From an uncultured Anaerolineaceae bacterium (lineage in GTDB: Bacteria; Chloroflexota; Anaerolineae; Anaerolineales; UBA11579), in assembly GCA_964623375.1 (NCBI GenBank), contig CAZUTS010000001.1:7692-71691 (forward strand): a stretch of 64,000 nt of DNA. Reading direction: 5' to 3'. Below, piece after piece: positions 50,525 through 54,390 of the stretch. The position numbers were made by a program, and so were the translations under genes. The notes under the pieces were generated by a model that had not been told where the DNA came from, ran no database searches, and saw nothing but the letters and a program-made list of their open reading frames with translations. Position 1 is the first letter of the stretch, and the number at the start of each line of letters is the position of its first letter.

Positions 50525-50545
50525 GGCTGCACGCAACGTGCAGCC
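50525..50545 (-). terminator. strong hairpin (possible terminator or attenuator) after the small-protein pair
   Basis: Minus strand GGCTGCACG-TTG-CGTGCAGCC, a perfect 9-bp stem, followed only by a weak T tract (TTCATAG). Confidence 0.45.
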
Positions 50546-50573
50546 GGTGCCATTGAAAATGCTGTAGCTTATT

Positions 50574-50789
50574 CTAGTGCAGGGTCGGGGCAGCTTGGAT
50601 CAGGGTGCCCAAGCGGCGCATGAACTGGTCCAAATCCATAGCCTGGATGGCAGTTACCGCGCGCATTTCTTCTTCATTGAGCTGGAAGGCGCCCAATTTC
50701 TCTTGCAGGCGTCCGCTCAGCAGCGCAGCCTTGAAATCCTGATCGACCAGAGCGAGAGTAGCGATAGCGTTCAATTTCAGTTTGGACAT
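50574..50789 (-). CDS. 71-aa helical protein resembling RiPP leader domains of the NHLP/Nif11 clan (Os1348- or Franean1_4349-like), with no obvious core
   Basis: AAAGGAGA SD 5 nt before the ATG. The sequence ...LVDQDFKAALLSGRLQEKLGAFQLNEEEMRAVTAIQAMDLDQFMRRL fits the D..F+..L...-...L..(F/Y).L(T/N)-EE...L...D...L pattern as I remember it for those families. Confidence 0.55.
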   Translation of the reverse strand: MSKLKLNAIATLALVDQDFKAALLSGRLQEKLGAFQLNEEEMRAVTAIQAMDLDQFMRRLGTLIQAAPTLH

Positions 50790-50830
50790 TGCAATCTCCT
50801 TTGGTAGGGGTGGAACCTTTGGCGAAGGGA

Positions 50831-51025
50831 CTAGCGGGAGGAGGGGCTGGTGCCGATGCCGCCGCCGATGGGGTGGTTAGCCTGAGGGCCAGTGCCAATC
50901 CCGCCACCGATGGGGTGGTTCATCTGGGGGCCAGTGCCAATACCACCGCCGATGGGGTGGTTCATCTCAGGGCCAGTGCCAATGCCGCCACCGATAGGAT
51001 GAGAGAAAGCGAAAGAGTTGGTCAT
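50831..51025 (-). CDS. 64-aa tandem-repeat peptide: MTNSFAFS + 4 x 14 aa (HPIGGGIGTGPxMN)
   Basis: AAAGGAG SD 8 nt before the ATG at 51025 (the track ORF starts further up at 51061). Four in-frame 42-nt units differ mainly at synonymous sites. Confidence 0.6.
   Translation of the reverse strand: MTNSFAFSHPIGGGIGTGPEMNHPIGGGIGTGPQMNHPIGGGIGTGPQANHPIGGGIGTSPSSR
50834..51001 (-). repeat. 4 x 42-nt in-frame tandem repeat (coding)
   Basis: Units: catcctatcggtggcggcattggcactggccctgagatgaac / caccccatcggcggtggtattggcactggcccccagatgaac / caccccatcggtggcgggattggcactggccctcaggctaac / caccccatcggcggcggcatcggcaccagcccctcctcccgc. Confidence 0.9.
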
Positions 51026-51171
51026 GTTTAAAGCTCCTTTAGGTTGTTTGATTGGCAACATTCTATAAGCTGCCCTATGAACGCAGCTATGAGCAAAAGT
51101 GCCAAAAAAGCCACCAATTTTCCAGGTAGCTGTTTTCCACTACTAGCAATGTAGTTGCAATTTCCTTGCCG

Positions 51172-54100
51172 CTACACCCGTATCGTTAGCTGGGTGTAAT
51201 AGTCTTGAAGGGCGTCAACCGGGTCTGCGTTGAGCTCTTTGCGCAATAGTTGTTTGTATTGTTTGAAGTGGGCAATCGCGGCTGAGGCGGCTCCGGAATC
51301 CACCATGCTCTTCATCAGCGCCAGGTGCGCCTCGTCGCGGTACGGGTCGGTGGCCACCACACGCTCGTAGATCTCGCGCGCCTCGCGGAAGCGCTTGGCT
51401 TTCACATCGATTGCCCCCAGTTGCTCCAGCGCGTTCAGATACAGGTGACGCAGGTCTTCGCGGCGCTGGTCTGCCCATTCCATGAAAATGTCTTCCAAAT
51501 ACACGCCGTTGTACAGGGTCACCGCCTGGCGCAACAGCTCGGCGCGCTCGGCGCTGTCCAGCGGGCTGGCATTCGCCTGGCGCACATAGGCTTCAAATTC
51601 GCCGGCATCGTACCAGGTCTGGATGCTGGGGTGCAGCGTGTACTGCTCATCTTCAAAAACGATCGAGTCTTTGAACCCCAGTGCCTGGCGCACGCGCCAC
51701 AGCGTAGCGTGGAAGTTGCTGCTTACCTTGCCGGGGCTAAAATCCGGCCAAAAGTCGATGCCAATGGCTTCTTTCCTCACCCGCTGGCGATCCAGGATAT
51801 AGATGAAGAGGGCACGCGCCCGCGAAGAGCGCCACACCGTGTGCGGCATGGGCTCGCCGTTGCGGCGAATCTCGGAGTGGCCCAGCGTGTAGACTTCCAG
51901 CAGCTGCGGTGTGACCTCGCTATCGTGGCGCTCGCCCTCCAGCGTGCTGCGCGTCATGGTGGCATGCAGCGCCTTTTGCAGAATGGCGTCCAGCTGTGGG
52001 CTGGGGGCGCTCTCGTGGGCGGCTTGCAGCACCGCGTGCCAATCACGCGCCAACGGGATCAGGAACTGCTCGTAGCCCAACTGGGCCGCTGCCTGCAATG
52101 CCTTGGTCATCAGCGGTTGGGCTTGCGCCGCGTTGCCTTGTGAAAACAGAATGCACGCACTCAGGAATGCCGCGGTCACCTCGTCTTGCTGCGCCTGCGG
52201 ACCCCAGCTCTGCATGGCGCTCTGTAACTGTGCCAGCGCCAGGTCATACTGCTGCATATTGGCGTAGGTCCAGCCCATATGCAGCGCATACGCCGTCTCG
52301 CTGAAGTGCGAACCCGCCTGGCTGGCAGCTTTGCGCAGCCAGGCCATGGCGCCGTTGTAGTCTCCCAAAGCGCTGGCGGCCCGCGAAAGGCTGACATAAA
52401 CCGGAACCAGCTCCTGAGTTTCCCCGGCGCTTTCGCCGATCTCTACCGCGGCCAGCAGGCAGCTTTGTGCTTCCTCCGCATCAGCCAGGTCAAGCAACAA
52501 GGCGCCTTGGCCACTGAGGATGGCGATTTGCTCACGAGCGCGCCCTGCCGTCTGGGCATGCCCCAGCGCCAGCATATATTCCTTCCAAGCCGCCTGATAG
52601 TCGCCCACCTGGTGGTGCAGGTAGGCGATATTGTTGCGCGCCGAGGCGCGTGCTCCCAGGTTGCTGCGGATGGCAATGTGAATATCCAGCGCCTCCTGGA
52701 AGGCTTGCTGGGCGCTGAGCATCTTGCCACTGGTGATATGGATCAAGCCCAGGTCGTTGAGACATTCCGCCAGGTCAAACAAAAAGAGCGAGCCGGCCTG
52801 TGTGCCGGGCGTTTCTGCCAATTGGCGCAGCCCGCTCACAGCGTTGTTGATGTGAGCAATGCCCTCCGCCGTTTGCCCCAGGGCGTGCAGGGGCACGCCG
52901 CGCAAGCGCTCCGCCTGGAACCACTGCAGTGACCCGCGGTGTGCCTTTGCCAGTATCGCTTGTGCCGCGTCGGCCTCGGCGATGGCGCCTTTGGGCTTGC
53001 CAGTGAAACGGTAGACCATGCCGCGGGTGATATACGCGTTGGCGAGCAGCTCAATATTGCCGCGCGCTTTCAATATTGGTTCAGCCTCGCTCAGTAATTC
53101 CAGGCAGGCTTGGAATTGGCTCTGATTGCCCAGCGCTTTGGCCTGGTACAGCATCAGGCGCGGCGCCAGCTGGCGCAGCATGGCGGTCTTGTTCAGCTCG
53201 TCCAGCCAGCGCGCCAGCACTGCCTGGCGGCCCGAGGTGAAGAATGGCTCCGCCACTGCATCCATCCATGCCGCCGCCGTCTGCTGCTGCTGCGCCGCCA
53301 GCATGTGCGCAATGGCGCCTTCCCACTCCTGGCGCGTGTAATGCCAATCCGCAGCGCGGGCGTGAAAGGCGCGCAGCTGGCCCGGGTTGTGCCGGGCTAA
53401 ATAATCCTGCAGAAACTCAGAGAACAGTTGGTGAAAACGGTAGCTGTTGCCTTCACGCGTTTCCGTGCGGCTGACGAACAGGTTGCGCTCTTCCAGCGCA
53501 CGCAGCATCACCCCGGAGTCCTCGCGTTGCAGCACATAGTTGCACTGCATTTCATTGAAATCACTAAAGATGGATGCGCCCAGCATGAACTCGCGCAGCT
53601 CTTCGCTTTGCTGGTTGACCACTTCTTCGGCCAGGTAGGTGTAGACCTGCTCGGTGTTGCCCAGGAAGCTGGGAATGCTGGCGGAGCCCATGGCGCGCAC
53701 CGCCAGCAACAAGGCTACGATCCATCCGTCGGCACGCTTGGCCAACTCCTGGGCCTCCTCTTGCGAGAGGCGCAGCCGATAGTTTTGCAGCACCAGCTTT
53801 TGCAGCTCATCGGCACGGAAGCGCAGCTCGTCCGCACCGATGGTGACCAGCTCATCACGAATATACAAGCTGGCCGCCGGAATGCCATACACACTGCGCG
53901 AGCCGATGAGGATACGCAAATGGTCGGGCAGGTTCTCCAGCAGGCTTTCCATGAAATCGACGATCTGCTGGTTTTCACCGGCCAGGTGATAGTCATCCAG
54001 CACCAGTACACTGAAATCCGGCACTTGCTCCTGGATGGCGTTGATCAGCTCGGTGGCAATGCTCGGTGCGTCAGGCGAGGCGCCCGGGTTGTCCAGGCGC

Positions 54101-54390
54101 TCTTGCAGCGTGGTGCCGAAGCCTGGGAACTGCTGCTGGAACGAGGCGACGATGTGCTGGGCAAATTGCACCAGGTCACCGTCTTCGGGGCTGATGCGAT
54201 ACCAGCACACCTGCGCATCCACGTCTGTGGCAAAGTCCACCAGCAGCGTGGTTTTACCGTAGCCAGCCGGGGCCGAGACAAAGGTCAGCTTACGGTGCAG
54301 GTTTTGGTGCAATCTGTCAATCAGGCGCACGCGCCGCAATACGTCTTTGCGACGCTGCGGGGCACGCACCTTGGTGAGCAGAATGGTCAT
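51172..54390 (-). CDS. STAND-type regulator: MalT-like NTPase + TPR array + C-terminal SARP (winged helix + BTAD) domain
   Basis: N-terminus MTILLTKVRAPQRRKDVLRRVRLIDRL...FVSAPAGYGKTTLL (MalT/LuxR-large-ATPase style), then a long TPR-like middle. The C-terminus TLGHSEIRRNGEPM...FHATLWRVRQALG...YNGVYLED...DPYRDEAHLALMKSM is SARP/BTAD-like. I chose the start at 54390; the upstream 116 codons of the track ORF overlap the divergent pdp promoter. Confidence 0.75.
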   Translation of the reverse strand: MTILLTKVRAPQRRKDVLRRVRLIDRLHQNLHRKLTFVSAPAGYGKTTLLVDFATDVDAQVCWYRISPEDGDLVQFAQHIVASFQQQFPGFGTTLQERLDNPGASPDAPSIATELINAIQEQVPDFSVLVLDDYHLAGENQQIVDFMESLLENLPDHLRILIGSRSVYGIPAASLYIRDELVTIGADELRFRADELQKLVLQNYRLRLSQEEAQELAKRADGWIVALLLAVRAMGSASIPSFLGNTEQVYTYLAEEVVNQQSEELREFMLGASIFSDFNEMQCNYVLQREDSGVMLRALEERNLFVSRTETREGNSYRFHQLFSEFLQDYLARHNPGQLRAFHARAADWHYTRQEWEGAIAHMLAAQQQQTAAAWMDAVAEPFFTSGRQAVLARWLDELNKTAMLRQLAPRLMLYQAKALGNQSQFQACLELLSEAEPILKARGNIELLANAYITRGMVYRFTGKPKGAIAEADAAQAILAKAHRGSLQWFQAERLRGVPLHALGQTAEGIAHINNAVSGLRQLAETPGTQAGSLFLFDLAECLNDLGLIHITSGKMLSAQQAFQEALDIHIAIRSNLGARASARNNIAYLHHQVGDYQAAWKEYMLALGHAQTAGRAREQIAILSGQGALLLDLADAEEAQSCLLAAVEIGESAGETQELVPVYVSLSRAASALGDYNGAMAWLRKAASQAGSHFSETAYALHMGWTYANMQQYDLALAQLQSAMQSWGPQAQQDEVTAAFLSACILFSQGNAAQAQPLMTKALQAAAQLGYEQFLIPLARDWHAVLQAAHESAPSPQLDAILQKALHATMTRSTLEGERHDSEVTPQLLEVYTLGHSEIRRNGEPMPHTVWRSSRARALFIYILDRQRVRKEAIGIDFWPDFSPGKVSSNFHATLWRVRQALGFKDSIVFEDEQYTLHPSIQTWYDAGEFEAYVRQANASPLDSAERAELLRQAVTLYNGVYLEDIFMEWADQRREDLRHLYLNALEQLGAIDVKAKRFREAREIYERVVATDPYRDEAHLALMKSMVDSGAASAAIAHFKQYKQLLRKELNADPVDALQDYYTQLTIRV

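Follow-up and report, generated by a model that had tools for sequence, protein, structure and literature searches.

In Streptomyces, afsS adjoins afsR, is a direct target of AfsR, and has a 63-aa product that contains characteristic internal repeats (PMC6988585; bioRxiv 10.64898/2026.09.02.748808); AfsS orthologues are too variable for BLAST (bioRxiv 10.64898/2026.09.02.748808). SARP activators recognize direct repeats spaced one helical turn apart, with 8 bp between the 3′ repeat and the −10 element, and AfsR contacts the first 8 bp of each 11-bp repeat (PMC10936776). At afsS, the AfsR half-site is CGTT(T/C)ATCGNN (PMC10972967). A second set of described systems, the RRNPP group (Rap-Phr, NprR-NprX, PlcR-PapR, and AimR-AimP), pairs a cytoplasmic TPR transcription factor with a small pre-peptide gene following on the same strand, and has been described as belonging to the Firmicutes and their mobile elements (PMC10075063, PMC9765709). 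Here we describe a cassette with the same succession of genes, located on a 64,000-nucleotide stretch (the window) of contig CAZUTS010000001.1 from an uncultured Anaerolineaceae bacterium (GenBank assembly GCA_964623375.1). By comparison with related genomes, it consists of four genes, encoding a regulator, a Gly-rich peptide, an Os1348-like protein, and a signaling enzyme, and it looks like an undescribed Chloroflexota peptide-signaling module rather than an antibiotic-peptide factory. The searchable literature yielded no account of such a cassette.

A coordinate check confirmed that all seven features that an initial annotation had listed for the locus are where it had placed them and are non-random. 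They are as follows:

54390..51172, minus strand: regulator gene (1072 aa)
51171..51026: 146-nt spacer between the regulator gene and the repeat-peptide gene
51025..50831, minus strand: repeat-peptide gene (64 aa), with a Shine-Dalgarno (SD) sequence, AAAGGAG, at 51040-51034
41-nt spacer between the two small genes, holding a second AAAGGAG SD sequence at 50802-50796
50789..50574, minus strand: 71-aa open reading frame (ORF), a divergent Os1348/Frankia_peptide member (NHLP-clan, LigA-like)
50545..50525, minus strand: hairpin 3′ of the 71-aa gene, with a perfect 9-bp stem and a 3-nt loop
50485..46970, minus strand: PAS-5xGAF-HD-GYP gene (1171 aa; Pfam, five GAF domains and HD_5 at 2.4e-38)

Close relatives share the entire neighborhood and by themselves offer little proof of a unit. 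The cassette was found, in all, in at least eight unrelated genomic contexts, the distant ones flanked by dnaX-ybaB-recR and LytR; MutS2-SpoVS and pheST; an aminotransferase with an M20 peptidase and FtsK; LysM-M23; RNase J and what we take to be GroEL, from the N-terminal sequence of one ORF; RlmL and ROK; or LexA and an ADP-forming acetyl-CoA synthetase. The recurring order is a regulator homologue (36 to 62% identity), the small ORF, the Os1348-like gene, and the signaling enzyme, and where a related locus has enough flank, the regulator homologue nearly always lies directly upstream of the small genes. The usual enzyme is an HD-GYP protein whose N-terminal regions are GAF, REC, PDZ, or transmembrane (TM) ones; in other loci its place is taken by a HisKA-HATPase kinase, by a PAS-GAF protein, or by an MscS-cNMP protein; HD-GYP proteins follow the Os1348-like gene in most loci that reach far enough downstream, whatever the flanks. 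In one lineage the gene of a DUF5317 membrane protein, sometimes accompanied by a REC gene, precedes the Os1348-like gene. Organism names on the matches are of Chloroflexota or Anaerolineales only. The initial annotation had pictured the two small genes as a bicistronic unit bracketed by a dedicated regulator and the hairpin, and had made the conservation of the three-gene neighborhood its test. The trio, with its dedicated regulator, does recur across these contexts, but the unit had been drawn too small, its fourth gene being that of the HD-GYP protein.

The regulator is built, in order, of a MalT-type STAND NTPase (Walker A motif GYGKT), a winged helix, TPR repeats, and a C-terminal AfsR-like SARP module. 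This last consists of an OmpR-type DNA-binding domain and a BTAD, the combination that defines SARP/AfsR proteins. Pfam detected the BTAD at residues 928 to 1067 (4.6e-21) in addition to TPR_12 and AAA_16, and NCBIfam a MalT model over residues 6 to 482 and an AfsR model over 825 to 1064. Against the PDB, residues 5 to 367 matched MalT (8bob; 3e-30) and residues 843 to 1065 the SARP domain of AfsR (8hvr, chain 8hvr_I; 2e-5). The protein is equal in length to its orthologues. AfsR likewise combines SARP, STAND NTPase, and TPR modules, although with an N-terminal SARP, an NB-ARC-type nucleotide-binding domain (NOD), and C-terminal TPRs; the cassette regulator does not fit this architecture, its order being NOD-TPR-SARP and its NTPase MalT-type. 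No homology to RRNPP receptors (Rap, NprR, PlcR, and PrgX) was found, the only matches being generic TPR, MalT, and AfsR ones; whereas those receptors are HTH-TPR proteins of 250 to 500 aa, the candidate receptor of the cassette has 1072 aa and is a STAND ATPase whose output module is a SARP.

The spacer downstream of the regulator gene carries a tandem box and promoter-like elements, preceded by the terminator of the regulator gene:

51104..51131, minus strand: regulator-gene terminator, stem AGCTACC/GGTGGCT followed by T6, as read from the sequence
51075..51094, minus strand: tandem direct-repeat box, GCTCATAG-ctgc-GTTCATAG, 12-nt period
51094-51087, minus strand: box 1, GCTCATAG
51082-51075, minus strand: box 2, GTTCATAG
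51070-51063, minus strand: weaker third repeat, GCTTATAG, overlapping the −10-like hexamer
51060..51065, minus strand: −10-like hexamer, TAGAAT, 9 nt 3′ of the second box

The box lies 50 nt upstream of the repeat-peptide start codon, and the promoter can be written as CGTTCATAG-N3-CGTTCATAG-N9-TAnnAT. Allowing up to 3 mismatches, GTTCATAG-N4-GTTCATAG occurs in the 64-kb window only at this locus (2 overlapping matches versus 0.12 expected). The suspicion that the spacer repeats are a real cis-element was borne out: 64 of 79 related loci have exactly one box, in the equivalent place and orientation, always on the coding strand and 140 to 490 nt 5′ of the first Os1348-like gene, and none was found elsewhere in the 1.68 Mb scanned, both strands counted. 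The consensus of 53 distinct sites is G[C/T]TCATAG-N4-GTTCATAG, with most positions invariant and the downstream box mostly preceded by a C; the −10 hexamer stands at a fixed distance (counts over the 53 sites, T48 A52 N N A42 T50). In nearly all loci with 5′ flank the order is terminator, G[C/T]TCATAG, 4 nt, (C)GTTCATAG, 9 nt, TAnnAT, and almost all related loci have a comparable hairpin and T-run ahead of the boxes. A consensus promoter/terminator scan found nothing; the promoter has no −35 element, and the 9-nt loop of the terminator is beyond the limits of the scan. Loci of the dnaX-ybaB-recR lineage (L032/L033, L077, L078, and L079) contain no GTTCATAG box at up to 2 mismatches.

With two boxes of 8 to 9 bp, 12 bp apart and 9 bp from TAnnAT, the layout is that of a SARP promoter, in which one turn separates the direct repeats and about 8 bp separate the 3′ repeat from the −10 element. 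AfsR targets likewise have two direct repeats over the −35 region near the −10, and the half-site CGTTCATAG nearly equals the CGTT(T/C)ATCG of AfsR. The box is thus predicted to be the binding site of two SARP domains, taking the place of a −35 element. Because of the box statistics, the SARP spacing rule, and the half-site match, the link from regulator to box to small-gene operon appears well supported and is the firmest part of our model, with AfsR-afsS as the closest analogue.

The first gene of this operon encodes MTNSFAFS followed by four 14-aa units, each starting with HPIGGGIGT:

50960..51001, minus strand: repeat unit 1, HPIGGGIGTGPEMN
50918..50959, minus strand: repeat unit 2, HPIGGGIGTGPQMN
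50876..50917, minus strand: repeat unit 3, HPIGGGIGTGPQAN
50834..50875, minus strand: repeat unit 4, HPIGGGIGTSPSSR, the last before the stop codon

A repeat search confirmed the 42-nt period, and 5-aa linkers separate the nonapeptide copies. Pairwise, the four 27-nt cores differ by 3 to 5 nt and by 0 aa. The same holds more widely, with 484 nt versus 12 aa differences over 115 within-gene core pairs from 19 genes. Between genomes, core variation is confined to four positions:

core position 1: H, Q, Y, F, R, G
core position 3: I, V, L, M, C, T, R
core position 7: I, V
core position 9: T, S, G, H

Because the copies match in protein while differing at synonymous sites, each genome appears to be under selection for carrying one nonapeptide in several copies; the identity is unlikely to stem from recent gene conversion, given the divergence at synonymous sites. 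Purifying selection acts on both small ORFs, the 71-aa gene with nonsynonymous divergence (dN) of 0.006 to 0.27 versus synonymous divergence (dS) of 0.4 to over 3. A homologue search with the repeat peptide returned no scoring match, and peptide orthologues were obtained by translating the orthologous loci, where the peptide is in frame and frame, repeats, and SD sequence are kept in 34 distinct sequences. In the window's clade the number of units is nearly always four, with five in L019 and two or three in L065, L064, and L045. A fifth, 76%-identical copy of a 21-nt coding repeat in the spacer (51098-51118) coincides with the stem and T-run of the regulator terminator, and it is probably a chance resemblance rather than a fifth peptide repeat.

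A short ORF rich in Gly codons, lying 5′ of other genes and with a hairpin further downstream, could also be a cis-acting leader peptide whose translation senses Gly-tRNA or stalls the ribosome and so controls the downstream genes via the hairpin. We consider this extremely improbable. The non-Gly positions, too, are identical across copies and differ between genomes, the relatives described below have a single motif behind a long hydrophobic leader, and the hairpin comes after the 71-aa gene instead of after the peptide ORF. In addition, an Rfam scan of positions 50300-51400 gave no match, hence no known riboswitch or small RNA.

The yeast alpha-factor precursor carries four tandem copies of its pheromone. 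As in that precursor and in the multi-core microviridins (PMC5934393), the window peptide strings identical short units and short linkers in one small ORF, with the last unit at or near the C terminus; among cassette relatives the copy number ranges from 1 to 5. It differs from these multi-copy precursors in having neither a leader nor a processing or modifying enzyme nearby.

Outside the window's Anaerolineales clade, the small ORF encodes a pre-peptide of 36 to 64 aa with a single C-terminal xPxGGGxGx motif. Its N terminus has polar and basic residues followed by approximately 15 to 20 hydrophobic ones. Sixteen distinct pre-peptides have a hydrophobic helix with a Kyte-Doolittle 15-residue mean of at least 2.25; small residues occupy positions −3/−1 (VFA, AWA, AHA, ALA, AFA, VLA), and a Gly-rich tail of 7 to 11 aa follows (e.g., GPLGGSVGS, NPTGGGWGS, GPGTGGTGS, EPSWGGVGG, GPIPGGAGS, CQLGGGGSCGG). 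An NCBIfam scan of eight peptides of this signal-peptide type assigned no family. One locus, L031, at the window-equivalent chromosomal position beside queA and ruvB, encodes a leader and one motif copy, QPVGGDVGT, and the leaderless genes begin with remnants of the cleavage region (FAFS/HP, LSFA/QP). The simplest history would be that, in the window's Anaerolineales clade, the leader was lost and the 3′ end tandemly amplified in place, from which the nonapeptide xPxGGGxGx would follow as the gene's functional unit, as the comparison supports. In most lineages this nonapeptide is predicted to be placed outside the cytoplasmic membrane. RTX-like Ca-binding repeats were rejected as an explanation of the window peptide (the period is 14, not 9, and the relatives are single-copy), as was a lipoprotein (there is no lipobox).

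Two further variants of the pre-peptide were seen. L074 (7575-7909) and L075 (7586-7920) have two tandem, near-identical pre-peptide genes (...FPGFAFA/GPIPGGAGS) before one Os1348-like gene, copy number being raised here through gene duplication and not through internal repeats. The tails in L034 (33-197) and L035 (363-557) contain two cysteines (CDPGQPGCGG and CQLGGGGSCGG), which suggests that the products may be disulfide-cyclised in those lineages.

PlcR controls its own peptide gene, PapR, and we propose that the cassette peptide gene is likewise under the control of its receptor. The 16 out-group pre-peptides resemble RRNPP pro-peptides in combining, by hydropathy and the −3/−1 rule, a putative N-terminal export signal with an active-looking C-terminal peptide, whereas the leaderless peptide of the window does not; as in RRNPP systems, the peptide sequence diversifies between lineages. 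Also unlike in those systems, the window's peptide is multi-copy and two extra conserved genes are present.

The leaderless form resembles AfsS instead: at 64 aa with internal repeats, it is a small repeat ORF that adjoins the regulator gene behind a predicted box promoter, a correspondence in gene layout. This raises a doubtful but serious alternative, in which the repeat protein would be neither processed nor exported and would serve within the cell as a multivalent regulator of small size, bridging, e.g., regulator copies, the 71-aa dimer, or GAF domains. The shared wiring (SARP domain, afs-box-like half-site, and adjacent small repeat gene of like size) speaks for such an effector, as do the window peptide's lack of a hydrophobic segment and its four protein-identical units, which would suit a symmetric oligomeric partner. 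Yet the ancestral and commoner form has a signal-peptide-like leader and one motif copy, which argues that the motif works as a single short peptide beyond the cytoplasm, or at any rate past a membrane helix; moreover, the copy number varies (1, 2, 3, 4, or 5) while the gene is retained, and the likeness to AfsS is one of description. The cassette further differs from AfsR-AfsS in being from Chloroflexota, in having a small gene derived from signal-peptide-bearing pre-peptides, and in an operon that adds an Os1348-like protein and an HD-GYP enzyme.

The 71-aa protein of the second small gene matched NF038399 (the Os1348 family of the NHLP clan) with an E value of 5.7e-4 (19.9 bits, below the curated cutoff of 40) and PF14407 (Frankia_peptide) with an E value of 0.02 (15.6 bits, below the curated cutoff of 48). 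A profile of 31 of its orthologues found 118 representatives, of which 58 were scanned: NF038399 was detected in 44 (best, 6e-14) and PF14407 in 23 (best, 2e-11). Through these intermediate sequences the protein is homologous to the Os1348/Frankia_peptide family, in keeping with the relationship to RiPP (a peptide synthesized on the ribosome and then post-translationally modified) leader domains originally proposed for it. As in that family, it is predicted to be all-helical with an N-terminal domain of approximately 65 aa; an AlphaFold2 model gave a five-helix bundle (pLDDT, 82), and the family sequence profile ranked Os1348 (6lk7) first in the PDB, although at an E value of only 0.022. Its 43 close homologues are all from Anaerolineales metagenome-assembled genomes, the one in DAOMSJ010000008.1 being 100% identical. 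Thirty relatives aligned (62 to 93% identity) show no variation in the first 10 residues, and conservation extends over the full length of the protein except for about 6 variable C-terminal residues, with nothing resembling a core; most members of the wider family have a conserved domain of approximately 65 aa followed by unconserved tails of 5 to 80 aa. One relative, P0090, has the domain fused to a REC domain, and in L032, L077, and L078 the Os1348-like gene abuts or overlaps the downstream histidine kinase (HK) or HD-GYP gene. The peptide and 71-aa genes are duplicated jointly in L021, L022, L039, L047, L049, L052, and L053. In some duplicated loci a degraded peptide ORF comes first after the box, in front of a 71-aa gene, a peptide gene, and another 71-aa gene, and in L046 the box leads straight to a 71-aa gene, the peptide gene being absent, perhaps through collapse of the assembly.

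The prototype Os1348, from Pseudomonas sp. Os17, is a dimeric helical protein whose gene lies beside GNAT, peptidase, and SagB-like genes (PMC7726476), none of which adjoins the 71-aa gene. In ECOD, the NHLP/LigA-like proteins are placed together with the leaders of NHLP, Nif11, ComX, and DurB and with the N-terminal domain of TglI (PMC12353581). An ATP-grasp enzyme figures in the RiPP prediction first made in 2009, as summarized in PMC8939145; there is none beside the 71-aa gene either. Apart from a classification paper and a graspetide survey, we found no literature on PF14407/Frankia_peptide, and none on Franean1_4349 or DUF5317. The 71-aa gene sits instead in a signaling cassette.

These affinities bear on the hypothesis that the initial annotation had favored, a split-precursor RiPP in which the 71-aa protein supplies a leader in trans to a leaderless multi-core substrate, with a maturase or exporter encoded elsewhere. 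Besides the profile matches, the ECOD grouping (PMC12353581), and the neighbors of Os1348 (PMC7726476), the duplication of the two small genes as a pair and the likeness of identical multi-copy cores to multi-core precursors would fit it. We nonetheless consider it unlikely. Since the out-group peptides carry their own signal-peptide-like N-terminal segment and a single motif, a leader in trans is not what the family is built around. Nor is the window peptide a classical precursor with leader and core in one polypeptide, only 8 residues preceding its first unit. No YcaO, radical-SAM enzyme, lanthionine synthetase, RiPP-type ATP-grasp enzyme, C39 peptidase, or ABC exporter was found in any of the at least eight contexts, and no peptide maturase, protease, or exporter among the window's flanking genes, so that the original observation of no maturase in cis extends to these contexts. 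The constant fourth partner is instead a signaling enzyme (HD-GYP, HK, or REC protein), the Os1348-like domain also occurs fused to REC, the 71-aa protein is conserved over essentially its full length, and the Gly-rich core offers few modifiable side chains. The alternative first put forward alongside the split precursor, a secreted or signaling repeat peptide with a small partner, fits much better.

It is a little less likely still that the 71-aa protein is itself a precursor, ComX- or Os1348-like, from which a short C-terminal tail is released or modified, with the Gly-rich peptide as an accessory membrane or secreted factor. The unconserved tails of the wider family and the restriction of variability to the last 6 or so residues in the window's clade would suit this idea. 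ComQ belongs to the polyprenyl-synthetase family, and in L055 (6420-7451) a divergent gene of that family lies directly after the Os1348-like gene, before a TM-PDZ-GAF-HD-GYP gene. That gene, however, was seen in one locus only, the tails, rich in Ala/Pro/Ser, show no modifiable residue that recurs, Pfam gave no ComX match, and no processing or export genes were found; both the REC fusion and the close coupling with HK or HD-GYP genes indicate that its role is intracellular.

Similarly improbable, marginally more so, is a bacteriocin-like system under the regulator's control, in which a small secreted peptide would be accompanied by its cognate immunity or chaperone protein. The signal-peptide forms, the gene-pair duplications, and the core variation between genomes do resemble toxin-immunity diversification, and deletion of Os1348 lowered antibiotic activity in Pseudomonas (PMC7726476). 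The window form is leaderless, however, and, unlike immunity proteins, which usually change along with their toxin, the soluble 71-aa protein is highly conserved. Typical unmodified bacteriocins are far larger than a 9-residue Gly-rich product, and the constant tie to cyclic di-GMP (c-di-GMP) and two-component enzymes would be left unexplained.

Between the small genes and the enzyme gene, the GC-rich hairpin (GGCTGCACG ttg CGTGCAGCC) is followed by TT only. It therefore does not qualify as an intrinsic terminator, i.e., a GC-rich stem with a U-tract, whereas the regulator's own terminator has T6. A strong GC-rich stem-loop of differing sequence follows the 71-aa gene in most orthologous loci, and in distant relatives the gap between the Os1348-like and HD-GYP genes is only 25 to 50 nt. 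The hairpin is probably, as far as can be inferred, a partial stop or a transcript-stabilizing element. The HD and GYP motifs of the PAS-5xGAF-HD-GYP protein are intact, making it a predicted c-di-GMP phosphodiesterase and the putative output enzyme of the cassette.

Taken together, the data fit an autoregulated peptide-signal cassette that feeds c-di-GMP turnover, with AfsR/AfsS-like wiring and RRNPP-like logic, a reading in which we place about even confidence. The regulator would bind the two CGTTCATAG boxes that replace a −35 element, 9 bp 5′ of the TAnnAT −10 hexamer, and activate a transcript beginning with the peptide and 71-aa genes; this step appears well supported. The small genes would be highly expressed, and the U-less hairpin would let part of the transcription read through into the HD-GYP gene, such that activation would lower c-di-GMP. 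The comparison with relatives supports xPxGGGxGx, in the window HPIGGGIGT, as the peptide unit, apparently exported by the Sec route in the wider family and leaderless and four-copy in this clade. This nonapeptide could be the ligand of the cassette, most probably read by the regulator's TPR sensor in a positive feedback loop as in PlcR-PapR, and would act after export and re-uptake or, when leaderless, within the cell. Most tentatively of all, the 71-aa NHLP/LigA-fold protein may serve not as a RiPP leader but as a cytoplasmic adaptor on the output enzyme or the regulator.

Several points weigh against this reading. With 8 residues ahead of its first unit and no hydrophobic segment, the window peptide lacks an export signal, nor is it linked to any exporter, Opp system, or processing protease, so that the "signal" may be a purely intracellular effector. 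The candidate receptors are several, namely, the TPR sensor, the GAF domains, and the 71-aa protein. Cleavage sites in the pre-peptides were called by eye and hydropathy (−3/−1 rule), not by a trained predictor. The box period is 12 nt versus 11 nt in SARPs, and the SARP module is C-terminal rather than N-terminal. Foldseek comparison of the 71-aa model with the PDB returned nothing significant and did not recover Os1348 (6lk7). Finally, in L046, L047, and L049-L053 the box seems to lead directly to the 71-aa gene, without an intact peptide gene between.

A broader version of the peptide-signal reading is possible, though we offer it tentatively. Chloroflexota would have their own class of peptide signaling, cell-cell or filament-internal, in which the TPRs of a STAND/NLR-type ATPase read the nonapeptide, its SARP autoinduces the peptide operon, an NHLP-fold adaptor and the HD-GYP enzyme couple the response to c-di-GMP, and one Anaerolineales lineage uses a leaderless polyprotein with lineage-specific "pherotypes." Under this broader version, the leaderless polyprotein of identical nonapeptides would be a bacterial counterpart of the yeast alpha-factor precursor.

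The cassette is set among housekeeping genes, with those for pyrimidine-nucleoside phosphorylase, DegV, rpsP, and dprA on one side and queA, ruvB, upp, a PAS-GGDEF gene, and tpiA on the other. The PAS-GGDEF diguanylate cyclase gene (42659-44059, minus strand) lies about 3 kb past the HD-GYP gene, with queA, ruvB, and upp intervening; this position is kept in most syntenic relatives, the gene being absent in L008, and the cyclase may be the source of the c-di-GMP opposed by the cassette's phosphodiesterase. Two minus-strand ORFs in this region, 44807-45805 and 45875-46819, have no Pfam hit and were dismissed as shadows of plus-strand genes:

44828-45853, plus strand: ruvB
45914-46951, plus strand: queA

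A PADLOC scan of all four cassette proteins found no match, which rules out a known STAND-type defense system.

A variant cassette is present by dnaX-ybaB-recR in a second Chloroflexota lineage (L032/L033, 8920-11082; L077, 7169-9208; L078, 7257-9084; and L079, 7269-8649). Its order is regulator, a pre-peptide of 36 to 43 aa (...ALAGGA/PDAVSGGG), DUF5317, sometimes REC, a Frankia_peptide gene, and a last gene that encodes a HisKA-HATPase, an HD-GYP, or a 112-aa protein. M20-family peptidase genes occur near the cassette in two contexts that otherwise differ, L036 (3224-4408, directly 5′ of the regulator) and L037 (12262-13671, 2.4 kb downstream). Their proximity is probably coincidental (ArgE/DapE-like), yet they are the sole recurring peptidase seen.

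A conserved regulator-peptide cassette in Chloroflexota would widen the picture of peptide signaling through cytoplasmic receptors as a Firmicutes feature, and would extend the AfsR-AfsS paradigm past the Actinobacteria with an almost identical DNA half-site. The coexistence of exported single-copy and leaderless multi-copy forms could show what small repeat proteins like AfsS do, and "RiPP precursor" annotations based on Os1348/Frankia_peptide may often mark signaling adaptors, not natural-product genes. The box and its regulator make up a compact, well-defined promoter/activator module. For the uncultured filamentous Anaerolineales, the cassette would provide a testable communication or differentiation circuit tied to c-di-GMP.

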